This document shows positions 82 to 24,836 of a stretch of 64,000 nt of DNA, piece after piece. Below the pieces are notes generated by a model. The model did no database searches. It was not told the origin of the DNA and saw nothing but the letters and a program-made list of their open reading frames with translations. The first letter of the stretch is position 1. Every line of letters starts with the position of its first letter. The stretch is from a virus: positions 214,014 to 278,013 of IMG/VR virus record IMGVR_UViG_3300028558_000016; one strand, 5' to 3'. The position numbers were made by a program, and so were the translations under genes.

Positions 82-527
82 AAAAAGTAAATGACGGAAA
101 CTTAGAACTGTTGCATTCGGCCTTAACACATTTCGTTGGAGAACCGATAACTCAAATGAGCAAGTTCGCAGATGACAGTTTATTGTTTCAGACGCACAGC
201 GGAATTACTGGATTTGTAGAGCCAAACAATACTGGCAACATGGAAATATCGATAGGAGAAGACATTGTATATGAGATAGAAAAGAATTTATACGACCTTC
301 TCGAACTCGACAAAAAGGAAATAGGATTGATTGATTTTTACAACCATCTGAAAATGGTTGATTGGACAGAGTTCAAAACCAAATCAAAAGATTTTTTTGA
401 CATAGTAAAAATATCGACGGAAAACATTATTTTAAATTATAATCTTCCATTAGTTGGTGACACCACGATAAACTCAACACAGGTTCACTACACAAATGAC
501 CAGAAGATTAAGATCAATCTTAACTAA
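78..527 (+). CDS. hypothetical protein
   Basis: 149-aa ORF from track; TAA 525-527 immediately followed by ATG 529 of next gene. Confidence 0.5.
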   Translation: MKKVNDGNLELLHSALTHFVGEPITQMSKFADDSLLFQTHSGITGFVEPNNTGNMEISIGEDIVYEIEKNLYDLLELDKKEIGLIDFYNHLKMVDWTEFKTKSKDFFDIVKISTENIILNYNLPLVGDTTINSTQVHYTNDQKIKINLN

Positions 528-528
528 T

Positions 529-2514
529 ATGGCAGGAATTCAACATCTAACGGAAATATTCAAAAAGAAGGGGAAAGACTTCACTCAATCTCTATTTGAT
601 AAGTTTGTAACAATCAACGAGAAGCTTGATGCAAGTGCATTTGGCATTGAGAAGAATTCTTCTACCAAGAAGTTGGAATTCTTTAAAAGGAATACTGAGA
701 CGCCTATTTCATTAATAGACAGAACTCTAATGAAGCTTTACGAAAAGCCAATTCATTACTTCGAGGCGTTTGATCAAGAGGTTCTCGACAAGATACCTTC
801 GAGATGGAGATTTGGAATGGAATATTTTGCCAACGACCATCCACAAGAAATTTCTTACGACAGACTTCCAAAGAACGGTCTCGTGCTTTCTTACATTCAC
901 GTTAAAAATTCAAATGGCAAACTTGTTAGAACCATTCAGGATAAAACTGAACTTGACCAATGGGCTGACTTGTTAGGAATAGAAAGAAGTCCAATCATAT
1001 TTCAAGGAAACTTAAACGACGATCAGAAGATTCAGATAATGGATTTTCTCGATACTCCATTTGGAAAACTCGTAGACAAATTCAAGACTGACTCATTCGT
1101 AAAATTCATCATATCGGTTTTAAATCCAAAATTGAAGAAGACCACTCTTAACGATGATTTGAACAAGAACATCGAAGGAATTGTTTTCAGGTTTGGAGAC
1201 GAAGACGATAAGGAAGTAATTCTCGCAAAGATGGTTGACCCTGTGTTTGAGCTTGTTTCAAAGACCAAGGCTGAGACGAAGAACGATGATGAGCCAAACG
1301 ATATTTTCCAATTGACCGTCATTGACATGATGAATTTCATCGACAGTCTTAATTTCAAAAAGTTCCAACCTAAAGGAAAAGATCTCGAGTCAAGATATTT
1401 AAACTTCATTTCAAACGCGTTCAACGATTTCGTTGATAGGTTTGGTGACAAATACAAAGACCTTAACTTCAATGAACCTGAGTTCATGAAGAAAAAGAAT
1501 TTTGACATCAATCTTGATTTCATTAAGAATGATACAACAATCGATTTAATAAACGACAACGAGGCATATAAAAAGTTATTCAAGATATTCTTGGCAAGCT
1601 TCAGAAAGAAAAAGAAAAAGCCAAGCGGACTATTCACAACTGAAGTCATTAAACAATTTAATGGAACTGTAGACAAGATCCATGATCATCTTGCGCAAGG
1701 ACTTGCCGTTAGCGAATCTGAAATTCCAACATTTGGAGAATTCAGATTACAAAAAGGTGGATACATGGAAGATGCAGAGTCTGACGGAGGCGTGGACGAT
1801 TTTGTTGAGTTTGGTGGTAAAGTAATGGATGAAGACAAGGACGATCCAAATCCTCCACAAGAAAATCCAGAGCCAAAAGCAGCTGGAGATACTAAAGATG
1901 GAAAAGAAGAAAAGAAGAAAGAGATAATAAAAGAAAAGGGCGATAAGAAAGTAAACATCATTGTTGGAAGGTTTCAACCATTCCACAACGGTCATCTTTC
2001 CATGGCAAAAGATTTGTATGACGTTAACAAATGTCCTACTGTCATTGTCGTTGTTCACCCAGGCCACAACAAGAGCGGACAAAGTCCATTCACAATATCA
2101 ACCATTAAAACAATGATGAGCAACCTGTCAAAGGACAGCGATGGAATCATTAAGGATTATTGCATCATAGGAAGAGGTTTCATTTATGACGTGATAAACA
2201 AATTGAGAGAACTCAATTACGAACCTGTGTTATGGGGAGCTGGCGAAGACAGAATAAACGATTACAAGAAACAGCTCGAACTTAATTTCAAGAGAGACAA
2301 TGAACTTAAGCTTGGAGATAATTTCCAGCTCGTCAAGACCGATAGATATGGAACTGGTACAGAAGTAAGAAAAGCTATATCAGACGATAAGTTCGGTGAG
2401 TTCAAAGCACTCGTTCCTAAAACAGTTCAAGGAGTTTATACACTTCTCAGAAACGACATCGAGAATGCTAAGAGAGAAGCAGAAGAAGCAAAACAATTGA
2501 AGGCAACCCAGTAA
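529..2514 (+). CDS. two-domain nucleotidyltransferase: N-terminal Rnl2-like ligase/adenylyltransferase-like domain + C-terminal NMN/NaMN adenylyltransferase-like (HxGH) domain
   Basis: Start moved to ATG 529 (MAGIQHL), directly after upstream stop. N-domain has KLDA (motif I-like, K~32), EGIVFR (motif IV-like) and LAKMV (motif V-like) with Rnl2-like spacing. K/E/D-rich linker. C-domain has IIVGRFQPFHNGH, a textbook NadM/NMNAT HxGH motif. Confidence 0.6.
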   Translation: MAGIQHLTEIFKKKGKDFTQSLFDKFVTINEKLDASAFGIEKNSSTKKLEFFKRNTETPISLIDRTLMKLYEKPIHYFEAFDQEVLDKIPSRWRFGMEYFANDHPQEISYDRLPKNGLVLSYIHVKNSNGKLVRTIQDKTELDQWADLLGIERSPIIFQGNLNDDQKIQIMDFLDTPFGKLVDKFKTDSFVKFIISVLNPKLKKTTLNDDLNKNIEGIVFRFGDEDDKEVILAKMVDPVFELVSKTKAETKNDDEPNDIFQLTVIDMMNFIDSLNFKKFQPKGKDLESRYLNFISNAFNDFVDRFGDKYKDLNFNEPEFMKKKNFDINLDFIKNDTTIDLINDNEAYKKLFKIFLASFRKKKKKPSGLFTTEVIKQFNGTVDKIHDHLAQGLAVSESEIPTFGEFRLQKGGYMEDAESDGGVDDFVEFGGKVMDEDKDDPNPPQENPEPKAAGDTKDGKEEKKKEIIKEKGDKKVNIIVGRFQPFHNGHLSMAKDLYDVNKCPTVIVVVHPGHNKSGQSPFTISTIKTMMSNLSKDSDGIIKDYCIIGRGFIYDVINKLRELNYEPVLWGAGEDRINDYKKQLELNFKRDNELKLGDNFQLVKTDRYGTGTEVRKAISDDKFGEFKALVPKTVQGVYTLLRNDIENAKREAEEAKQLKATQ

Positions 2515-2522
2515 AATTTATT

Positions 2523-3575
2523 TTGATGATAAAGCCGACAAAAGAAGAAATAATAGAACTTCTTAATAAGTCCTCTTTAGATGACATGACGCTCGAAGCG
2601 GTACACAACCTTATCAAGGTTGATCCTTTGAACATCCGTTACGTCTCGGACTATTTACAAAAACTCGAATTCATAGAACACTTGAAGCTATCACACGATC
2701 TGTGCATGATGGATCATAGTGGGGTCCTTGATAGAATCATAGACAAAACAATAGTAGAGAAAGACTTTCCAAGAGAGAAGAGATTCAACCTCATAGACCT
2801 CTGCAACTCAAAAGGAATATTGGTTGACGTTGGACTGTTTAAATACCTTCTTGATTTCAAACCCGAATCACACATTATAATTGGAAAAGGAGAAACTCTT
2901 ATGAGAATTCTCATGAAGGGAGTTCCTACATTAAATGGAGACCTCGGAGCATCAGGAAAGAAATTTGAGATCAAATACAACAAATCTCGATTAAGAGGAC
3001 AGACTGGGTTTGATGCAACAGATGCAACCCAGGTGGCAAAAGCTCTTGACGACTATTTCATACACGAATGCAAGGCAATAAAATTTGATCCCACTTCATT
3101 GATAGGAACTGACAGAGGCAGATGGAATTTCGTTTCAGGTAAAAGAATAAAACCTTACCTTCTCAGTGAGATAGTAAAGCAATCCGGAATGAACCACCTT
3201 TATGCCTGCAAGATATTCGTTCAGGCCTTCAGAAAATTCTTTACCAAGATGACAGAGGATGAAGCATTGAACCTCGCGTTGTCTCTGTCAAACGAATTCA
3301 ATCCAGATGGTTCCATCAAAGAACGATTCGGATACTCAGATTTCATCTACAAGATGTGTGCCTATTCAATGAAATATTATGCACAGGTTGAAGATTTTGA
3401 TGGAATGCTTATCCTGAATGACAAATTCGATTGCATGTATATCACCAGGGAATTCATAGACACCAGTTCATTGGAAGTTCTATGCCGTTTCATCAGACAC
3501 AACCTGGAAATAACCACTCCCAACCTCGGTTCAAAGGCAGGTCCGCAAGGTTCTTCTTTTGGTATATCCCTGTAA
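2523..3575 (+). CDS. hypothetical protein
   Basis: 350-aa ORF, no recognisable motif. Confidence 0.55.
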   Translation: MMIKPTKEEIIELLNKSSLDDMTLEAVHNLIKVDPLNIRYVSDYLQKLEFIEHLKLSHDLCMMDHSGVLDRIIDKTIVEKDFPREKRFNLIDLCNSKGILVDVGLFKYLLDFKPESHIIIGKGETLMRILMKGVPTLNGDLGASGKKFEIKYNKSRLRGQTGFDATDATQVAKALDDYFIHECKAIKFDPTSLIGTDRGRWNFVSGKRIKPYLLSEIVKQSGMNHLYACKIFVQAFRKFFTKMTEDEALNLALSLSNEFNPDGSIKERFGYSDFIYKMCAYSMKYYAQVEDFDGMLILNDKFDCMYITREFIDTSSLEVLCRFIRHNLEITTPNLGSKAGPQGSSFGISL

Positions 3576-5763: not shown

Positions 5764-6348
5764 ATGGAATTCAACGAGAACAACATAAATGAAGCAAAGA
5801 ACTTCTTAAGAGAGAAAGCATCTGGAAAGGTGTTAAACTTCAACGACTTCATATTTGAAGCAGAAGAGAACGGATATGGCCAACAGGCATTCTTCTTTGC
5901 GGTTAATGGCGACACAGCTAATTATTTCTTTAAGATCAAAGATGGTCAAGAAACACATGCTTTGGTTGTATCCATTGGAAAGTTTGCAAAAACAATTCAG
6001 CCAACAGAACAAAAGACTGACTTCGGAGTTTTAGGAATAACAACTCTAAGTGAAGACGATCTTGACCAAGCTGTAGTTGACAAAGGAAAATTCACAACAA
6101 ACGAAGAGATCATTACAGCAAATGAGTCGTTCACAGGAAAATTCCTTGAGCACTTAGCTCTTATAATAGACGATTACCTTCAGAAGAATCCTAAGGTGAC
6201 TAAGTTTTATGACGAAATGCAAATGTGCTTTCAAGCACCTGATTACGATAACAAATTCTCTGTGTCATTAGCAAAATGGCCTGGCGGTAATGAAGCATGG
6301 AAATTACAAACCATGGAGAAGGGTAAATTAAACATCATCACCAAGTAA
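5764..6348 (+). CDS. hypothetical protein
   Basis: 194-aa ORF. Confidence 0.5.
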   Translation: MEFNENNINEAKNFLREKASGKVLNFNDFIFEAEENGYGQQAFFFAVNGDTANYFFKIKDGQETHALVVSIGKFAKTIQPTEQKTDFGVLGITTLSEDDLDQAVVDKGKFTTNEEIITANESFTGKFLEHLALIIDDYLQKNPKVTKFYDEMQMCFQAPDYDNKFSVSLAKWPGGNEAWKLQTMEKGKLNIITK

Positions 6349-6536
6349 TGAAGCATATCAAATTATTTGAGGAATTCAAAATAGACGAAGCTGAAACAGG
6401 AGCTTATCCTGCTCCTAAGTTTGCAAGAAAGCCTGCAGCCGGTGATTCTGGTTATAATTATGTTGCAAAACAATTTGGTGCAACTCCAGCTCCTAAGAAG
6501 AAAAAGAAGAATTCAAGGACTGAAGAGTCTAAATAA
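6348..6536 (+). CDS. small CTS-motif protein (MKHIKLFEEFKIDEAE), paralog of next gene
   Basis: Shares EAETGAYPAPKF..P.GD.GY with the downstream ORF; K-rich tail. Confidence 0.5.
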   Translation: MKHIKLFEEFKIDEAETGAYPAPKFARKPAAGDSGYNYVAKQFGATPAPKKKKKNSRTEESK

Positions 6537-6958
6537 TGGAACACTTAAAAGATTTTAATATTTTTGAAGCAGAGACGTCAAGTTATGATACTCCTAAATT
6601 CATAGTCAAACCTTATCCAGGCGATAAAGGTTATGAATTGACAAGAAAGAAATATCACAGATTTCTGTGGGTTCTTCCTCAACTTGGAAAAGGTGTTATC
6701 GATAAAGGAGAAAATCCTCCAGTAACTGAAGCTGCTTATGATGATACAATAGATAGAGACTCATTCAATCCAGCTGAGATCTCAGGTATGGGAAGAGCAC
6801 AGGAATTTCCAGGAGGCAAAACTCCAGGATACACTAAAGATACTGGGACTGATTATTTGCCAAGTGACAAATACGAAGATCCCGACGAGAAGAAGGCCAA
6901 AAAGTTAAAGAAGATAAAAGACTTTGAGGACTTTATAAATGGAGAAGAAACAAAATAA
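6536..6958 (+). CDS. CTS-motif protein (MEHLKDFNIFEAE...), motif repeated at C-terminus (KIKDFEDFINGEE)
   Basis: 140 aa; paralogous N-terminal region to 6348..6536. Confidence 0.5.
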   Translation: MEHLKDFNIFEAETSSYDTPKFIVKPYPGDKGYELTRKKYHRFLWVLPQLGKGVIDKGENPPVTEAAYDDTIDRDSFNPAEISGMGRAQEFPGGKTPGYTKDTGTDYLPSDKYEDPDEKKAKKLKKIKDFEDFINGEETK

Positions 6959-6970
6959 AAAACATAAACA

Positions 6971-7366
6971 ATGATTTACGTAATCGGTTTAATAGTTGTA
7001 GCGGCAATAGCATTCGTATTATGGAAAAGCCATAAGACTGTAATGTGCAAATGCGATAAATGCACAGATGAAAATTGCAAATGCGACGAGAACAAATGCG
7101 ACGATAATTGCAAATGTCATGATGTTGCTGAAGCTCCAGTTCCATATTTGAATGGTCACAGCAAGAAAATAACAGCTGATCCTGCTGACGAACCAACTGA
7201 TTCTTGTGATACAGCAGGTCACGAACCTTGCGACACTTGTACAGATGATGAACCTAAAGCAGCTGAAGCTCCTAAGGAAGAACCTAAAAAGGAAGAACCA
7301 AAGAAGGAACAGCCTAAAAAGAAACCAGCACCAAAGCCTAAGAAAAAAGGTAAAGGTAAAAAGTAA
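6971..7366 (+). CDS. membrane-anchored Cys-rich, Lys-rich protein
   Basis: N-terminal TM helix (IYVIGLIVVAAIAFVLW), CKCDKCTDENCKCDENKCDDNCKCH cysteine cluster, PKKEEPKK tail. Confidence 0.5.
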   Translation: MIYVIGLIVVAAIAFVLWKSHKTVMCKCDKCTDENCKCDENKCDDNCKCHDVAEAPVPYLNGHSKKITADPADEPTDSCDTAGHEPCDTCTDDEPKAAEAPKEEPKKEEPKKEQPKKKPAPKPKKKGKGKK

Positions 7367-7803
7367 TGCTGATTTCCATTGTATATCTGCTTTGGATTCT
7401 ATTTGCAATCTATGAAGGAAAAAGAGAAGCATTCTATTTTTCTTGCAAGATTAAAGCTCCACAGCAACAGGCATACAAAATAGACGAGCACGTCATGTTC
7501 ACTATACAGAGGACTTTTATTGCCTCAATGGCAATTTTAGCTTGTCGAGTGGATTGGTTGAATTCTGTTTTAGTATTGTTTTCGTTTGGATTATGTTTTC
7601 CATTTTTTCACGATGGGATGTATTACTTGACGAGACATAAGCTTGATGGAATATACGTAAAGGGTTGGTTTGATCAAAGCACAACATCGTCAGCTAAGTC
7701 TGACAAATTACATTTATTTGATCCAATACCAAGAACATTAATTTTTGGTTTGTCTTTAGGATTAATTATTTATGAAATAATAAAATTTTGGAAATGGGCA
7801 TAA
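7366..7803 (+). CDS. integral membrane protein
   Basis: Multiple hydrophobic helices. Confidence 0.45.
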   Translation: MLISIVYLLWILFAIYEGKREAFYFSCKIKAPQQQAYKIDEHVMFTIQRTFIASMAILACRVDWLNSVLVLFSFGLCFPFFHDGMYYLTRHKLDGIYVKGWFDQSTTSSAKSDKLHLFDPIPRTLIFGLSLGLIIYEIIKFWKWA

Positions 7804-8222
7804 AGAGATACAGCGATTTCGTTAACGTCAACGAAAAAGTCGAACAATACGATTTTGAATTCCACACAGTAGTGGTTGCAAAGAACATTGATTTCGATAA
7901 TGAGCCTGTGGACAATTCTAAGGAACAATACATTGAAAAAGGAGATTTAACCATCCATTGGATAATGGATTTCGATAATAGAAAATACGGAATCAATAGT
8001 ATGGCGCCTGTGATCAAAAAGATCTCAGGATTTTATACTTTGGTCACTCCACAAGAACAAGGCAGAGATATTGAAGATGAAGTGGAAATTCTAATGGATG
8101 AAAAATCTGATTGGAAATTCGAGAATGATTTTCAAAGCGAATTCAAATTCGGTTACTCAATTGTTCCAGGAAGCATAGAGATAGATTTCAAAGACAAGAC
8201 AATCAAAATACTTTATTATTGA
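7794..8222 (+). CDS. CTS-motif protein (MGIKRYSDFVNVNE)
   Basis: Track ORF 7788; likely start at second Met, giving MGIKRYSDF motif. Confidence 0.45.
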   Translation: MGIKRYSDFVNVNEKVEQYDFEFHTVVVAKNIDFDNEPVDNSKEQYIEKGDLTIHWIMDFDNRKYGINSMAPVIKKISGFYTLVTPQEQGRDIEDEVEILMDEKSDWKFENDFQSEFKFGYSIVPGSIEIDFKDKTIKILYY

Positions 8223-9223
8223 AGCATTTCCATTGCAAGTCTCGCACCAGGTATGTGAGATGTCATTGCCATGAATGCGTACAGTGCTAAAGCAAGAGTA
8301 AAGTATTGCAACACTGCCAATAATATTTGACGCAAAGTCATTATTGGTTTTTCCACCGGCTTTTCCGGTTTCCTTAAATTCGTTTTTGTTTCAGTTAGAT
8401 ATTTTGCTAATTCAGCAGGAATTGGAACATTTTTATCCGTATAATCTTTTTCTATCGATGCAATGTGATTCAATATTGAATAGTATTCGTTATTGAGTAT
8501 CTCATCATATTTGTTTTTTCTCTTCAACAGCCAAAATTCGAGCAACAATTCTATGGTTGATAGAATGACAACGAGAATAAAAATCCAAATGTGCGCATAC
8601 ACTGCGAGAAATATTGCACCCACAATTCCGAGGCACATGAAGATCAATCCAACCCAAGAGTGAATAGAGAATGCAATTGATTTCATTATACGACCACCAT
8701 CAAGAGGATTTATTGGAAGAAGGTTAAAAAGATTTATCATTGCCATCCAGCTTGCTCCAGCAGCATACATTGGATTTTCCGTGACATAGAATATAATCAT
8801 CATTCCAAGCGCACAGGCAAATCCAAACACAGGTCCCATTATGGCAACAAACACTTCGTCATTCCTTGTTTTAAAGTCTTCTGACGCAACAGCCGCTCCA
8901 CCCACAAATGGAATGAAATAGATTCCCTTGGTTTTTATGCCAACACGTTTCATGGCCCAAATATGACCATACTCATGGATTAAAAGTTGTACCATTAATA
9001 TAAGAGAGAACTTCCATGAATACATGTAACTGTATGCGGCAAAAGATATTCCAGCCAATGCAAGCTTGGTCATCTTTGCTGATATTGAAGTCACCTTTGT
9101 TATTACTTTAAGAGATAAGATAGCGATATTCGTCATCTTACTACCAAACGATTTTGGTTTTTCTGTTGTCATTTCTGCCATGCTACAAATATACTTAAAA
9201 CTTTTAATATCTAACGAATACAA
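8216..9223 (-). CDS. M50 family (site-2 protease-like) zinc metalloprotease, membrane
   Basis: HEYGH (HExxH) in a TM helix plus NLLPINPLDGG (LDG motif); multiple TM segments; one of only three minus-strand genes. Confidence 0.75.
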   Translation of the reverse strand: MYSLDIKSFKYICSMAEMTTEKPKSFGSKMTNIAILSLKVITKVTSISAKMTKLALAGISFAAYSYMYSWKFSLILMVQLLIHEYGHIWAMKRVGIKTKGIYFIPFVGGAAVASEDFKTRNDEVFVAIMGPVFGFACALGMMIIFYVTENPMYAAGASWMAMINLFNLLPINPLDGGRIMKSIAFSIHSWVGLIFMCLGIVGAIFLAVYAHIWIFILVVILSTIELLLEFWLLKRKNKYDEILNNEYYSILNHIASIEKDYTDKNVPIPAELAKYLTETKTNLRKPEKPVEKPIMTLRQILLAVLQYFTLALALYAFMAMTSHIPGARLAMEMLQ

Positions 9224-9283
9224 CTATTGAGAATTTTTGTAGATTTGTTTGAGTATATAGATACTGATAGTTCTTTGATTTAT

Positions 9284-9683
9284 GGGACCGAACGGTTTTG
9301 ACAGTAATCCCTTAGTGGGTAAGCACGTCGTGCCTTGTATGTGTAGCACGTTAAAGCAAACATTCACAATTTTGTAAACGGCAACGTAATTACAAACGAA
9401 GTTGGCTCAAAAGCTGACGTATTAGCAGTTTTAAAAACAGTTAAGGCTAAGCCTTCTGTTGCTCAAGTTGAAGAACTTGAGATTGCTTAATACCCTACGG
9501 GTTCACCGCAAACTCTTCAAACCTGAGAAAAGCATAAGACGCTAAGGTACAATCCGCGTGAATGCAAAGTTGATCTCGAACTCATCGAGGTTTAGTTTGA
9601 GGAATTATAAAAATTCCATCTAAACGTGTAGAAAATCTATTATTGTTTTTATTTGGACCCGGGTTCGAATCCCGGCGGTTCCA
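9284..9683 (+). ncRNA. tmRNA-like RNA (tRNA-like acceptor/T-arm closing a ~400-nt RNA)
   Basis: 5' GGGACCG (9284-9290) pairs with 3' CGGTTCC (9676-9682) in a 7-bp acceptor stem with one G-U; discriminator A 9683. T-arm CCGGG-TTCGAAT-CCCGG (9659-9675) preceded by GGAC. 5' GGTTTTGACAG resembles the tmRNA GGAUUCGACGG element. Internal ORF ...AVLKTVKAKPSVAQVEELEIA* ends TAA 9488-9490. Confidence 0.55.
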
Positions 9684-9892
9684 CTGAAGGTGAATCATAT
9701 TGGTTTACCTATTGAGTGCCTGTTACGTGACTTGAGAATTAATAGTTGCGTGGTGTAAGAAAACAGGATAAATGATAAATTCATGCTTACCGTAGACTGG
9801 ATGTTGAGTGGTTTACGCAACTATCAACCAGTCGAACACACATGAGTGACCTCGTTCGAAAACATTCAGCTCAATTGAATTTCGCCGTTAGT

Positions 9893-9978
9893 GTTTGTCC
9901 ATTCGTAAAATGGACTGGTGGATCAAGGTAACAACCTAACATGCCCAAGTTTGTCCAAACTTTAAATGGACTGGTGGA
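9893..9978 (+). repeat. two copies of a ~30-nt hairpin-containing direct repeat (GTTTGTCCA-N8-ATGGACTGGTGGA)
   Basis: 9893-9922 and 9949-9978; each has GTCCA/TGGAC inverted arms. Confidence 0.7.
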
Positions 9979-9998
9979 GGTGTATGCAAACGCCCTGT

Positions 9999-10032
9999 GG
10001 AAAATGGAACTTCGGTTCCATTTTCTGTTTTG
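9999..10032 (+). terminator. rho-independent terminator
   Basis: GGAAAATGGAAC-TTCG-GTTCCATTTTC perfect stem with UUCG tetraloop, then TGTTTTG. Confidence 0.8.
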
Positions 10033-10064
10033 AAACATATCATTAATCCTTTAATATAAAAGTC

Positions 10065-10706
10065 ATGCATGAAATCTTAATATCAAACGGAAAAATAACA
10101 AAGGACGGAAAGAAGATCGAAAGCATTTTTAGAATATTAACAAAGAGTGTTGAATTCCATAAAGATCTTACCGTATACGGATTATTTAAAGCATTGAAAC
10201 CTTTTTCAAAGGAAATCAATTTGGCATTTGCATCACAACTCGGTGGATTTGATTTTGATCTTTACATAACAGAAGCAGAAAAGAAATCCACCAAGGATGG
10301 TCATGGAGACTACATTGATTATTGTGAAGTTCATTGGAACGTGGATTACTCAAAAATAAAGAAGTATGAAGCTTTTTATTTATGGCCTGATTTCCATGGA
10401 TGCAAGAAAAGACAAAAGATGGGATATGGATTAGATTTCAGTCCAATCACAACATATAAGGATAAGCCAATCATATTGAATGAAACCTTAGACATCGGAC
10501 TCGTTCACATTGTAAATAAAAAAACAACGAGAACCCCAATATTGAACACAAAAAAACATTTCACGTTTTTTGAAGCCATTGGTGGATTTTTAAATGACAT
10601 TTCCTTTTATGGCCCACCTAAAACCAGAGATGAAAAAGGAAAAGAAATAATGGATGACACTGCATCGGAAAGAGCAATATTGATGGAGAAAAAGAAAAAG
10701 AAATAA
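10065..10706 (+). CDS. hypothetical protein
   Basis: 213-aa ORF. Confidence 0.55.
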   Translation: MHEILISNGKITKDGKKIESIFRILTKSVEFHKDLTVYGLFKALKPFSKEINLAFASQLGGFDFDLYITEAEKKSTKDGHGDYIDYCEVHWNVDYSKIKKYEAFYLWPDFHGCKKRQKMGYGLDFSPITTYKDKPIILNETLDIGLVHIVNKKTTRTPILNTKKHFTFFEAIGGFLNDISFYGPPKTRDEKGKEIMDDTASERAILMEKKKKK

Positions 10707-10707
10707 A

Positions 10708-10974
10708 ATGGAAAATATAACTGACAACCTGCTATCTGGATTAAGCGATGACTTAACTAAAGAAACGGAGCTTTTCCTTTTAAATAACATTGCTGACAAG
10801 AATACACAGCAAAAGATTATAGGATTAATAAACAAATCTTTTAACGAAGGAGCTCAAACTGCTCTTGAATTCTACGACAAGGCAAGAGAAGATTTTCAAA
10901 ATCAGGCATCATCCTTTCAAAAGGATTTCCACAATAAATTATTCGATGGACAAGATAAGCATGTTTCTGAGTAA
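10708..10974 (+). CDS. hypothetical protein
   Basis: 88-aa ORF immediately after upstream stop. Confidence 0.45.
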   Translation: MENITDNLLSGLSDDLTKETELFLLNNIADKNTQQKIIGLINKSFNEGAQTALEFYDKAREDFQNQASSFQKDFHNKLFDGQDKHVSE

Positions 10975-11314
10975 TCTTCCAAGAGTTTTAAATGACGATG
11001 GTGGTTTTGGATCTCCTCCAACTGAACTGGTCATACAAAATTCCATTAAATTCGTTAAGAGTCTTCCAGCATATTATCAAAGAATATTAGACCTTGAAGA
11101 TTGCATAACTGCAACAGGTCATGGAACAGTCACAATCGATTGGTATTATAAGAAACACTTCATCTCAGTTGAGATAGGGAACACATTAATTGGATGGTTT
11201 TCAGACCTTCCCGATGGTATAAATACCTCATCTTCAGGTGTTCCTATAAATGACTCCCCGCCTACTGAAATCATATCAGGTCTTAATAAGATCTATTCAC
11301 GTAAAGAAGTCTAA
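10961..11314 (+). CDS. hypothetical protein
   Basis: Track ORF 10865; start placed at ATG 10961 (or 10946) to limit overlap with upstream gene. Confidence 0.45.
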   Translation: MFLSNLPRVLNDDGGFGSPPTELVIQNSIKFVKSLPAYYQRILDLEDCITATGHGTVTIDWYYKKHFISVEIGNTLIGWFSDLPDGINTSSSGVPINDSPPTEIISGLNKIYSRKEV

Positions 11315-15608: not shown

Positions 15609-16724
15609 ATGTGGTCAGACAGAGACTTAAAAGGTCCATTTTTAAAATATCGTGACATCCTTACAAAGTATGGATGCAGCGATGAAGACATTGCTAAACT
15701 TCAATCAATGTGGAATGAACCACACAGAGTTTATCACAACCAAGAACATCTTGATGAGATTATCTCATTAATAGAAAATTGGAAATCTCCAACCATCATT
15801 GATGGCAAAATGACTGAGACTGAATTCGATCTATTTATTCTTACTGCAATCTTCCATGATGCGATATATGATCCAAGAGCTAAATCTGGCGAGAATGAAT
15901 TAAATTCTGCTGAGTTATTTTTAAAGATGTGTCCAAAAGCAGCTGAGAGCGAATTGAACCCGCAAGGAAATCCATATAAATCCGTTTCAGATTTCGTATA
16001 TGGAATGATACTCGATACGAAAGACCACACACAAGAACCTTCATCAACATATTCAAGAGTATTCTTAGAATATGACTTGCATGGCATGATTAATGGAAGC
16101 TTATCGAGAATGATCTCTGATGAAGCAAAGATAATGCGCGAATATGGTTTCGTCGATTATGAAACTTACCATAATGTTAGAGGAACACAATTCTTGGAAA
16201 AGTTTGCCCCTCATATAAAGAAGCTAAATCCAAACTCAAAGGTGGAAGAGTATCTTGATTGGTATAAGAACAGAACTCCTAATATAGCGATATTTGCTGG
16301 AAGCTTTTATCCATTTCACAAAGGACACTTGGACATTCTGAAGAGAGCTGAAAGAATATTCGATAAGGTTATTGTGTTATTGTGCGTTAATCCCGGAAAG
16401 AATAACAACAGCGAACATGTTAAAGGATATATCATTAATGAATTAAGAGGAAAGCTTCCTAATAATCAGATTGAATTTTTCGATGGGATGTTACATAACT
16501 ACATAAAGAAATTAAGCTATCCAGTTTCCATAGTTAAAGGATTAAGGAATGCAAGCGATTTTGATTCTGAGAAATTACAATTAAGATATATGGAAGACAT
16601 GTGCCCTGACATAAATATAGTTTATATTGTGTCTGACAGAAAATATGAACACATTTCTTCTTCTGGCATTAAGCAAATACAAAGCATGGGAGCATTAAGT
16701 GAAGCTAAAGAATATTTAATATGA
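15609..16724 (+). CDS. HD-domain phosphohydrolase fused to HxGH cytidylyltransferase-family nucleotidyltransferase (NMNAT/PPAT-like)
   Basis: N-part: H..H (YHNQEHL) and HD (FHDAIYDP) motifs. C-part: FAGSFYPFHKGHLDILKRA...VNPGKN, typical CoaD/NMNAT signature. Confidence 0.65.
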   Translation: MWSDRDLKGPFLKYRDILTKYGCSDEDIAKLQSMWNEPHRVYHNQEHLDEIISLIENWKSPTIIDGKMTETEFDLFILTAIFHDAIYDPRAKSGENELNSAELFLKMCPKAAESELNPQGNPYKSVSDFVYGMILDTKDHTQEPSSTYSRVFLEYDLHGMINGSLSRMISDEAKIMREYGFVDYETYHNVRGTQFLEKFAPHIKKLNPNSKVEEYLDWYKNRTPNIAIFAGSFYPFHKGHLDILKRAERIFDKVIVLLCVNPGKNNNSEHVKGYIINELRGKLPNNQIEFFDGMLHNYIKKLSYPVSIVKGLRNASDFDSEKLQLRYMEDMCPDINIVYIVSDRKYEHISSSGIKQIQSMGALSEAKEYLI

Positions 16725-23073: not shown

Positions 23074-23376
23074 ATGGAAGAAAAAGAATTGATAATACTC
23101 ACACATTATGTGAATGTTGGGAGTTCATCTCCAGAAACAGCAAAGCGTATAATGGAAAGAACCGTAGAAATGGTTTTGAGCGAGGATACAGATCCATTGT
23201 ATAGATTTAAACATTTTTTCTATCCTGTGAAAGATGAAGTCAATGCAAGAACAGAATGCATCTATCCTGTAAGACAAGGTCCAATGGGAATTCCTGGAGT
23301 TCCTGGAGATTATTTTGAATCGATTTTGAAAGACCTTGATAATAAGTACGAACAGCTTTTAGAAAAAATAGGATGA
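23074..23376 (+). CDS. hypothetical protein
   Basis: 100 aa. Confidence 0.45.
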   Translation: MEEKELIILTHYVNVGSSSPETAKRIMERTVEMVLSEDTDPLYRFKHFFYPVKDEVNARTECIYPVRQGPMGIPGVPGDYFESILKDLDNKYEQLLEKIG

Positions 23377-24836
23377 TACTCGATATAGAAAAAAGACCTC
23401 ACGAACTTGCATGCAGTTACTTCAATAAAGAAGGAACAATTGAATATGTAAGAATTCCAGTTCCATTGAACGAAAGATTCAATTGGTTAACTTGTAATGA
23501 CACGGATAAGGACAAGGACGTAGAATGGAAAACGTGGGACGAAAATCCTGTAAAGAAGATAATCGTAAAAGATGCAACTAAACTTTCTAAGTATAGATGT
23601 GAAGAGGTTATTTATCAACATACACAAGCAAATCCCGACTCTCCGTTATTGGAGTTTAATGTTCCAAGAAAGTATTTCATAGATATTGAGGTTGAGGTTC
23701 TTGATGGATTTCCAGATCCTGACACAGCACAAAATAAAATAACTGCAATATCAATCGCAGGCGCTGATAGCAAAAGGATTTTTGTTCTTGGTCTTAAACC
23801 ATTAACAGAAGCGCAATGTCACAAGATCGATGCCGACATCAACGGGCACTTTGCCAAGTTCGATGATAAATGGAATTTCCAATACAAGCAGTTTGATTCT
23901 GAGCATGACATGTTGGTTGAATTCTTTCAGAAGATATTACCTAACATGCCTTGCATAAGTGGATGGAATTTTTTCGGATACGATTGGAAGTACCTTCTTA
24001 ACAGAGCTTACAAATACAAGGATGTAAAACCAGAGAGATGTTCTCCGTCGAATACTTTAATAACAAAAAGAAATTCCGGTAATTCAGGAATTCCACAACA
24101 TAAGCTTATTGTGGATTACATGGAAATTTACAAGAAGTGGGATAAGGTTATCAAGGTAAGAGAAAACGATAAGCTTGATTATGTTGCCAAGATGGCAACA
24201 GGATTGGAGAAAATTAAATATCCAGGAAGCTTCACAGAGCTTTATGAAAGAGATTTTCAAAAGTTTATCTTCTATAACGCGGTCGATTCAATTCTGGTTC
24301 ATTACATCGATAAGAAGCTAAACACAATGTTGGCTTATCTTAAATTGGCACATGTTTCAGGAATAGAAATAAAGAAAGCATTCTCTCCTATTTGGATCAT
24401 GGAAGCAATGATGAACAGAAAATTCCTTGACAGAAAACAAGTATTCGTTTATTTGGGTGGAGATGAAGAAGATCAAAAACCATTTGATGGTGCGTATGTA
24501 AAAGAACCTTTGAGAGGATTTCACAATTGGGTTACATGTTATGACTTTGCATCTTTGTATCCTAATACCATGATGCAATTCAACATCAGTCCAGAAACAT
24601 TTGTTGGAAATAACGTTGAGCCTAAAGAAGGTCAGATCAAGGCCGGTGAGCACGTCAATGAATTTGGAAAAACATCTTGGAGAGTTTTCGATAACAGCTC
24701 TGACTCCATAATGAGAGTAATTTTAACAGAGCTTTATGGAAAGAGAAAAGAAACGAAACAAAAGTACCTCTCTATTAATAAAGAGATCGACGCTCTCAGC
24801 AAGTACATTTCAAAAGAACGATTAGAGAAAGCCTAA
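23373..24836 (+). CDS. family B DNA polymerase, N-terminal segment (3'-5' exonuclease + polymerase motif A)
   Basis: Exo I YFIDIEVE, Exo II WNFFGYDWKYL, Exo III YNAVDSIL, motif A YDFASLYPNTM; ends before motif B. Confidence 0.85.
   Translation: MILDIEKRPHELACSYFNKEGTIEYVRIPVPLNERFNWLTCNDTDKDKDVEWKTWDENPVKKIIVKDATKLSKYRCEEVIYQHTQANPDSPLLEFNVPRKYFIDIEVEVLDGFPDPDTAQNKITAISIAGADSKRIFVLGLKPLTEAQCHKIDADINGHFAKFDDKWNFQYKQFDSEHDMLVEFFQKILPNMPCISGWNFFGYDWKYLLNRAYKYKDVKPERCSPSNTLITKRNSGNSGIPQHKLIVDYMEIYKKWDKVIKVRENDKLDYVAKMATGLEKIKYPGSFTELYERDFQKFIFYNAVDSILVHYIDKKLNTMLAYLKLAHVSGIEIKKAFSPIWIMEAMMNRKFLDRKQVFVYLGGDEEDQKPFDGAYVKEPLRGFHNWVTCYDFASLYPNTMMQFNISPETFVGNNVEPKEGQIKAGEHVNEFGKTSWRVFDNSSDSIMRVILTELYGKRKETKQKYLSINKEIDALSKYISKERLEKA

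Follow-up and report, generated by a model that had tools for sequence, protein, structure and literature searches.

What is encoded by positions 9284-9683 (+) of the 64,000-nt stretch of the IMG/VR virus record IMGVR_UViG_3300028558_000016: a transfer-messenger RNA (tmRNA, SsrA) or a tRNA split by an intron? The whole 64-kb stretch is referred to below as the window, and the 400 nt of the element are those of the gene as encoded, before CCA addition. The initial annotation had read the element as a divergent phage tmRNA and not as an intron-containing tRNA, and it had proposed covariance-model and ARAGORN searches as checks. In the covariance search, the Rfam tmRNA family RF00023 matched at 9284-9686 (+) with 101.1 bits (E = 2.6e-38), well above the gathering score of 47 and over the complete model (1-374 of 374), and it was the only Rfam family matched in the whole 64 kb. 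The model alignment is colinear from 1 to 374, showing that the gene order is not circularly permuted, and the two-piece tmRNA model RF04321 had no match in the window. Together with the covariation of the helices, the selection on an internal tag frame and the phage context described below, this score bears out the earlier reading, and we conclude that 9284-9683 very probably encodes a functional one-piece tmRNA of a megaphage of about 480 kb.

The comparative evidence comes from 12 further copies of the gene, which we reached through the neighbouring M50 peptidase, the back-translated tag peptide and a conserved downstream gene. They are L001 (a 374-kb IMG/VR contig), L020 (a 508-kb IMG/VR contig), L021-L025 (JGI metagenomes) and L148-L152 (ENA and Logan assemblies). 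Those scored with Rfam reached 83-113 bits; the relatives are 55-95% identical to the window tmRNA, and their GC content ranges from 36 to 51%. Motif searches were less productive: an IMG/VR scan with the 3' motif GGTTCGAATCCNNNCGGTTCCAC returned mostly ordinary tRNAs, one with the tmRNA 5' motif gave three chance matches inside coding sequence, and a scan with the helix-2d motif gave no match. Separately, a circularly permuted two-piece tmRNA (RF04321, 91.7 bits) was seen at L012 4744-5033, in a dense tRNA cluster of a 64-kb IMG/VR viral contig.

The full structure including pseudoknots was drawn by hand from the window sequence and counted on the four best-aligned copies, and RNAalifold was run on eight copies, in which compensatory changes were counted as well. 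The hand-drawn structure was 94.2% paired, a value somewhat favoured by the origin of the drawing, compared to 28-45% when the partners were slid; the 13 pairs changed on both sides are the stronger evidence. None of 500 shuffles reached the observed values. RNAalifold recovered the acceptor stem, the T-arm, helix 2d, stem 1 of pseudoknot 1 (PK1) and two hairpins inside the tag frame. The 7-bp acceptor stem with one G-U that the initial annotation had described holds up: G3·U is its sole wobble and is invariant in all eight copies, compensatory changes occur at three of the seven pairs (stem positions 4-6), and the discriminator is an A. A G3·U70 pair and an A73 discriminator make up the alanine identity of tmRNA and, judged from its sequence, the window gene has both elements (a G3·U70-type pair and A at 9683). 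The T-arm, previously reported as CCGGG-TTCGAAT-CCCGG preceded by GGAC, was found exactly so, with a TTCRANY-type loop and with compensatory changes at three of its five pairs (eight copies), and the suspected 5' tmRNA-type element proved to be GGTTTTGACAG, which aligns to the consensus GGaUUCGACgg (Table 1).

Instead of an anticodon arm, the RNA has a long helix 2, whose parts 2a, 2b and 2d are 90-100% paired and contain compensatory pairs. Helix 2d is 100% paired with two compensatory pairs in the four copies, and in the eight copies three of its six pairs show compensatory changes. Stem 1 of PK1 and pseudoknot 2 (PK2) are each 100% paired with one compensatory pair, and pseudoknot 3 (PK3) and the terminal hairpin that stands in the place of pseudoknot 4 (PK4) are 90-94% paired with compensatory pairs in each helix. 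The PK2-PK4 domain of tmRNA is variable. These results leave little room for a tRNA gene interrupted by an intron of about 310 nt. ARAGORN in intron mode at an 80% threshold did stitch the two ends into a 'tRNA-Phe(aaa)' with a 311-nt intron, but this implausible prediction requires heavily relaxed thresholds and has a poor D-arm and anticodon arm. A permissive Rfam scan of 9150-10120 revealed no group I intron (RF00028) or other further family at E<=1, whereas the real intron of the relative L025 scores 74 bits. In view of the 101 bits for the tmRNA model, the conserved internal coding frame and the covarying pseudoknots, the chance that the element is an intron-containing tRNA is negligible, and we regard this reading as effectively refuted.

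The internal frame noted initially, ending in ...KAKPSVAQVEELEIA with a TAA at 9488-9490, exists, but only its C-terminal part had been quoted: the full tag comprises 36 codons, starting at GGC 9380. A frame of 34-37 codons is kept in all 12 relatives over 36-51% GC, and the stop codon is TAA in every copy. Among eight copies, the variable columns at codon positions 1, 2 and 3 number 20, 14 and 30 of 35 codons, and all indels in the frame are whole codons without exception. This pattern shows selection on the tag as coding sequence. [quoted passage not shown] No start codon is conserved ahead of the resume codon, and the codon directly before it differs among the relatives, encoding N, D or T. 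In the absence of such a start codon, trans-translation is the only plausible way in which the frame would be read.

Since the commonest tmRNA tag has 10 residues (PMC11915505), the window tag is unusually long, at about 3.5 times the usual length. The long tag might have arisen when one base was inserted at the stop of the consensus, where the cmscan alignment has an extra U (~9432), but this origin was rejected, as the long frame is kept in all relatives. The tag of L152 resumes at GCU (Ala) and reads ANAITNEVGTADDLRFVLAQMSAKTASAQVEVLELV up to the stop, and the endings found in the family are EIA, EFA, EFAA, ELAA, ELVA, LMAA and ELV, that is, hydrophobic residues plus Ala or Val. The tag matched no Pfam family or PDB chain above chance, and tblastn found no match to it in deposited phage genomes. 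Scanned with the tag alignment, 185,579 species-representative genomes contained no member of the tag family; the sole match, in a metagenome-assembled genome of the Flavobacteriales, lies inside an ordinary coding sequence and was discarded as a chance match.

The surroundings of the gene are those of a phage. Some 75 genes are packed closely together in the window, almost all of them on the same strand, among them a family-B DNA polymerase fragment, an AAA ATPase, an RNA-ligase/nucleotidyltransferase fusion, YopX and a Mor-like regulator. Proteins identical to window open reading frames (ORFs) are encoded on contigs of 482,059 and 482,156 bp, and we therefore assign the window to a megaphage of about 480 kb. 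The polymerase protein is closest, with 32-38% identity, to huge phages from metagenomes (LR756500-LR756503, 462-735 kb) and to the Lak megaphages of Prevotella; at the nucleotide level, neither the tmRNA region nor the first 20 kb matched any of 50,697 phage records (blastn). The order of genes is shared with the relatives, where homologues of 5764-6348, 6536-6958, 7366-7803 and 7788-8222 and the M50 peptidase lie upstream of the tmRNA, and homologues of 10708-10974 and 10865-11314 downstream. An alternative genetic code with TAG or TGA reassigned, as in Lak phages, was rejected: long ORFs do not merge under it, and the standard code applies.

Because tmRNA genes are common integration sites, collections of viral contigs can contain a host ssrA, and the gene could in principle be a cellular, bacterial one, on a contig wrongly assigned to a virus or at the junction with a prophage. 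However, the gene lies mid-way in 64 kb of phage-like genes of a single orientation, the same syntenic block is present in the 374-kb, 508-kb and ~482-kb contigs, and the tag family was not found in the 185,579 species genomes, which makes a cellular origin highly improbable.

The host of the phage is probably a member of the Bacteroidota, as suggested by the Gly resume codon, by the position of an intron in L025 and by the nearest phages, Lak and other Bacteroidota megaphages, all of which is indirect evidence. A Gly resume codon is also found in the native Bacteroides tag GETNYALAA. In L025 (2897-3569), the T-loop of the tmRNA is split after the second loop base (TT/CGAAT) by a group I intron of about 230 nt at ~3319-3548 (RF00028, 74 bits), i.e., at subsite 3. 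Group I introns at T-loop subsite 3 in tmRNA have been reported only from the class Bacteroidia (PMC11915505). The source of L025 is an unassigned 6-kb metagenome contig that shares genes with the phage lineage; it is the sole family member that encodes CCA, and its tag is GEITNEVGSKADVLAVMKSIAPVAVAEEAEELLMAA.

Five observations weigh against a functional tmRNA. Stem 2 of PK1 as drawn is weakly supported, with 68% paired; CCA is not encoded in the window gene, which has CTG instead; the tag lacks the canonical ALAA ending, as the initial annotation had already remarked, and closes with ...EELEIA; SmpB was not found in the window by tblastn, a weak test with an approximate E. coli SmpB query; and ARAGORN detected only one of the 13 copies of the lineage, L020, missing the window gene and 11 of the 12 relatives. 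The CCA would therefore have to be attached once the 3' end has been processed. A Pfam scan of 30 ORFs, including the 20 that flank the tmRNA, showed neither SmpB nor a CCA-adding enzyme. The window covers 64 of about 482 kb, and the host or the remaining ~420 kb of the phage could supply the SmpB partner.

Taken alone, the ARAGORN result would wrongly have dismissed the tmRNA. Over the window, the program reported no tRNA or tmRNA at default settings and no tmRNA at -ps, -ps90 or -ps80, and detection was not rescued by the in-silico edits GACAG->GACGG, TTTTGAC->TTTCGAC, CTG->CCA and GGC->GCA, by an early stop or by combinations of these. (No tRNA gene was found by ARAGORN or Rfam anywhere in the 64 kb.) In L020 (2897-3290), the tag given by ARAGORN is AKSKTTATQVEELEIA, which begins at an internal GCA. 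Judged by conservation in the family and by the U-A bases upstream, the true frame starts 18 codons earlier, at GGC (GNVITNEVGSLSDILSVLAKSKTTATQVEELEIA). When the compact phage tmRNAs described below were extracted, ARAGORN found five of nine and missed four. Therefore, ARAGORN-based censuses under-count huge-phage tmRNAs of this sort.

From established tmRNA biology we infer how the gene would be expressed, processed and charged, which SmpB it would use and what would become of the tagged proteins. A precursor would be transcribed from its own promoter-like box through the structured trailer to the terminator at 9999-10033. RNase P would trim the 5' end at G9284; the 3' end would be trimmed after A9683 and CCA added, and alanyl-tRNA synthetase would charge the RNA via the G3·U pair and the A discriminator. 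Together with SmpB, presumably that of the host, and EF-Tu, the charged tmRNA would then enter stalled ribosomes, and translation would resume at GGC 9380, placed by the upstream U-A, adding Ala and 36 residues (...AQVEELEIA) before stopping at TAA 9488. Ribosomes would thereby be freed during infection, and the hydrophobic-Ala C-terminus probably directs the tagged fragments to proteolysis.

A working tmRNA might instead use its long tag to give proteins a phage-specific fate: they might be recognized by an adaptor or protease of the phage, evade the ClpXP of the host or take part in signalling. The length of 34-37 residues, compared to the commonest 10 (PMC11915505), speaks for it, and so do conservation along the whole tag, including the N-terminal ITNEVG and central ADVLAV blocks, a C-terminus that varies (IA, FA, FAA, LAA, LVA, MAA, LV) behind a fixed QVEELE, the failure to find the tag family in the 185,579 species-representative genomes and in deposited phage genomes, and the M50 protease gene as a conserved neighbour. 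However, all endings are hydrophobic-Ala or Val, which is in keeping with SsrA-type degrons as known, part of the tag conservation is due to RNA hairpins within the frame, the tag matches no known domain or peptide, and the adjacency of the M50 gene is part of general synteny with an orientation that differs between lineages. We therefore consider a phage-specific fate unlikely. Still less probable is a role chiefly as a decoy, by which SmpB of the host would be titrated or its trans-translation blocked, and to which the tag frame would be irrelevant. Such a role was proposed for the TLD-only RNA of mycobacteriophage DS6A, a phage precedent (PMC4131195; PMC11915505), and finding no phage SmpB nearby would fit it. 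However, a decoy would not be expected to have a tag under clear coding selection, with indels of whole codons and conserved frame-setting bases, nor PK1 (in its stem 1), PK2 and PK3 maintained by compensatory changes. We regard it as very improbable and retain the proposal of a tmRNA that tags proteins for degradation.

Table 1 Features of the tmRNA locus in the window and of related loci carrying the trailer module
Feature	Position	Strand	Remarks
Acceptor stem, 5' strand GGGACCG	9284-9290	+	pairs with 9676-9682
GGTTTTGACAG, D-loop analogue and start of helix 2a	9294-9304	+	9302-9304 pairs with 9653-9655
Helix 2b, 5' strand	9313-9320	+	partner 9635-9642
Helix 2d, 5' strand	9323-9328	+	partner 9624-9629
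Pseudoknot 1	9329-9366	+	stem 1 9329-9333/9346-9350; stem 2 as drawn 9336-9342/9360-9366
Frame-setting UAAAC (U -5, A -4), then resume codon GGC (Gly)	9375-9382	+	GGC aligned by cmscan to the resume codon of the model
Tag frame, 36 codons, GNVITNEVGSKADVLAVLKTVKAKPSVAQVEELEIA, and stop TAA	9380-9490	+	resume GGC 9380-9382; TAA 9488-9490
Hairpins inside tag frame (helix-5-like)	9401-9407/9412-9418 and 9462-9469/9474-9481	+	RNAalifold and counts on hand-drawn structure
Pseudoknot 2	9521-9565	+	9521-9524/9545-9548 with 9532-9535/9562-9565 and 9539-9542/9556-9559
Pseudoknot 3	9575-9601	+	9575-9579/9585-9589 with 9581-9584/9598-9601
Terminal hairpin replacing PK4	9602-9606/9612-9616	+	ends PK3 region 9575-9616
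Helix 2, 3' strands (CUAAACGUGUAG element and partners)	9624-9655	+	close pseudoknot domain
T-arm CCGGG-TTCGAAT-CCCGG	9659-9675	+	GGAC just before
Acceptor 3' strand CGGTTCC, discriminator A, CTG in place of CCA	9676-9686	+	3' strand 9676-9682; A = 9683
M50-family (site-2 protease type) membrane metallopeptidase	8216-9181	-	Pfam PF02163, E = 1e-19; ATG start 9181
Putative promoter, AT-rich box (TTGAGA ... TATATA)	9227-9259	+	relatives share ...GAAACTTTT...TA(G/A)ATATATA shortly before mature 5' end
Trailer spacer, ~206 nt	9687-9892	+	inverted repeat 9739-9751/9815-9827
Trailer module copy A: GTTT, 6-bp hairpin (GTCCAT/ATGGAC), TGGTGGA	9893-9922	+	
Trailer module copy B: GTTT, hairpin, TGGTGGA	9949-9978	+	then second small hairpin 9979-9994
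Predicted intrinsic terminator: 12-bp stem, UUCG loop (9999-10026), then UGUUUUG	9999-10033	+	-15.8 kcal/mol, z = -5.2
Putative second promoter-like box (TTGA[A/G]A ... TATATA or TAATAT type)	10030-10057		after terminator, ahead of next genes
Compact phage tmRNA loci with internal module			L154, L157, L162, L164, L168, L169, L171, L194, L195, L200
tRNA-cluster modules	L165 9340-9374; L174 12009-12043; L187 2927-2965; L209 9612-9641	L187 and L209: -	

The gene adjoining the tmRNA on its upstream side encodes the M50-family peptidase. It is next to the tmRNA in nine related loci (L001, L022, L023, L024 and L148-L152), divergently oriented in the window, L022/L023 and L148-L152, and co-directional and about 1.2 kb off in L001 and L024; the window peptidase has no homologue in deposited phage genomes. 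Gene order thus identifies the peptidase as a syntenic neighbour of the tmRNA in this lineage, its adjacency being part of the general synteny.

The initial description of the locus as a long structured intergenic region stands as far as the structure is concerned, but the part of the gene-free stretch (9182-10064) that lies downstream of the tmRNA is its 3' trailer, with hairpin modules and a terminator. The relatives have TTGAAAC...ATATAA in common at both promoter-like sites, before the tmRNA and after the terminator, which suggests a promoter consensus specific to the lineage. The stem-loop at the end of the trailer is predicted to terminate the tmRNA transcription unit, and L148-L152, L021 and L001 have a comparable terminator behind the module. 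The spacer directly behind the tmRNA gene is long in the window, L149 and L150 and short or absent in L021, L148, L152, L001 and L024. It matched no Rfam family at E<=1, its ORFs are only short and not conserved, and it may be an insertion.

The trailer module occurs twice in the 64 kb, both times in the trailer, compared to 0.00 matches expected. Of the ten loci of the window lineage whose sequence extends over more than 15 nt beyond the tmRNA, nine have the module 3' of it, 7-350 nt from the 3' end (L001 6448-6480, L021 508-537 and 561-590, L024 2655-2686, and also in L148-L152); L020 and L025 are loci without it. Covariation was assessed on 15 copies: L190, which came from the motif scan, and 14 of the window lineage, whose discovery did not depend on the motif. 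The hairpin was 93% paired, compared to at most 43% with slid partners; three of the six pairs had changed on both sides and none on one side only, and UGGUGGA was invariant across the 15 copies. No Rfam family matched the module in the window trailer at E<=1. Other explanations of the motif were rejected or not supported. A small protein is incompatible with loop-length changes that break the frame and with an in-frame TGA in L001; a genome-wide regulatory repeat does not agree with two copies only in 64 kb; and a mini-CRISPR array, a Chi-like site or a Shine-Dalgarno sequence found no support, since the two copies belong to diverged subtypes, the module often occurs singly and a start codon at a fitting distance is lacking.

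A first, loose viral scan for the motif gave mostly chance matches. With a tighter pattern, the module was widespread in IMG/VR with many different compensatory stems; UGGUGGA was fixed by the search pattern, so its conservation in these matches is uninformative. In compact phage tmRNAs of 306-377 nt (Table 1), the module lies inside the RNA, between the tag ORF and helix 2, and replaces PK2-PK4. The tags of these compact tmRNAs are varied (...DYAVAA, ...EKAAA, ...SLAA, ...RLAA, ...MLAAA). In L159 and L190 the module follows tmRNA-like 3' ends directly, and in phage tRNA clusters it stands 5-7 nt after tRNA-Glu or tRNA-Gly genes, or alone. As it is also found beside phage tRNAs, the module is associated with tRNA-type 3' ends in general, not with tmRNA only.

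UGGUGGA is the exact complement of UCCACCA, the mature tmRNA 3' end in the lineage; since this complementarity was noticed after the fact, it counts as no more than a lead. In L001, whose module begins 4 nt past the gene, UCCACUG is paired with CUGGUGGA in the minimum-energy fold of the 3' segment, and this pairing is stacked on the hairpin. Tentatively, the module could be an undescribed RNA element of phage tRNA and tmRNA loci in which pairing of UGGUGGA with ...UCCACCA-3' (or ...CACCA of tRNA) controls 3' maturation, CCA status or aminoacylation, or senses uncharged 3' ends; we consider this proposal doubtful. The pairing would be loosely analogous to the UGGN-NCCA contact of T-box leaders. 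If true, the locus, with this module and the long non-canonical tag, would be a regulated system of trans-translation specific to the phage, and not a gene borrowed from the host.

Three further genes of the window deserve mention. At 23373-24836, the ORF for the family-B DNA polymerase corresponds to no more than the N-terminal ~500 residues of phage polymerase profiles, and the polymerase gene may be split. The ORF at 496-2514 (+) encodes a 672-aa fusion of an RNA-ligase-like and a cytidylyltransferase-like domain, 57% identical in the 374-kb relative, and that at 15609-16724 (+), a few kb from the tmRNA, an HD-phosphohydrolase/nucleotidyltransferase protein; together these two may form an RNA-repair or nucleotide-salvage gene set.

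Huge-phage tmRNA genes are taken as evidence of phage control over host translation. Here, a tag of 34-37 residues was kept while the lineage drifted from 36% to 51% GC, raising the question of the role of the extra ~25 residues, and the tmRNA transcription unit shares a covarying trailer module with the interiors of other phage tmRNAs and with phage tRNA neighbourhoods. The tag sequence (...QVEELEIA junctions) offers a direct proteomic handle for phage-driven trans-translation in Bacteroidota-type hosts.

Compared to the bacterial one-piece tmRNA (RF00023; E. coli, Bacteroides), the window gene has the same G3·U acceptor stem, A discriminator and T-arm without an anticodon arm, the same long helix 2, a probable PK1, a start-less internal ORF after U-A at -5/-4, and downstream pseudoknots. 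It differs in being phage-borne, in a tag of 36 instead of ~10 codons that ends in ...EELEIA and not in ...YALAA, in a PK4 reduced to a hairpin, in the missing CCA and in the structured 3' trailer module. The intron-form tmRNA genes with a group I intron in the T-loop (PMC11915505) have their counterpart in L025, interrupted at subsite 3, whereas the window gene is uninterrupted. Complete tmRNA genes are known from large virulent phages, the cluster C mycobacteriophages (Bxz1 and others) and Bacillus phage G (PMC4131195); these phages have unrelated hosts, and no sequence-level similarity of their tmRNAs to the window tmRNA was detected, nor did the tmRNA region (blastn) or the tag (tblastn) match any deposited phage genome. 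A further parallel is with the huge-phage tmRNAs of Al-Shayeb et al. (2020), which were catalogued with ARAGORN in a study that also reports phage SmpB (PMC7162821): as in these, a phage of several hundred kb, with a polymerase related to those of the LR7565xx and Lak phages, carries a translation-rescue RNA, but the lineage studied here is mostly missed by ARAGORN, and no SmpB was seen in the window. Since phage-borne tmRNAs are already established (PMC4131195, PMC7162821), as the initial annotation had stated, the gene is not of a new type; tmRNA in huge phages was known, and what sets it apart is the long, lineage-conserved tag, the failure of ARAGORN, the tool of the huge-phage census, to recognize the gene, and the conserved trailer module shared with other phage tmRNA and tRNA loci.

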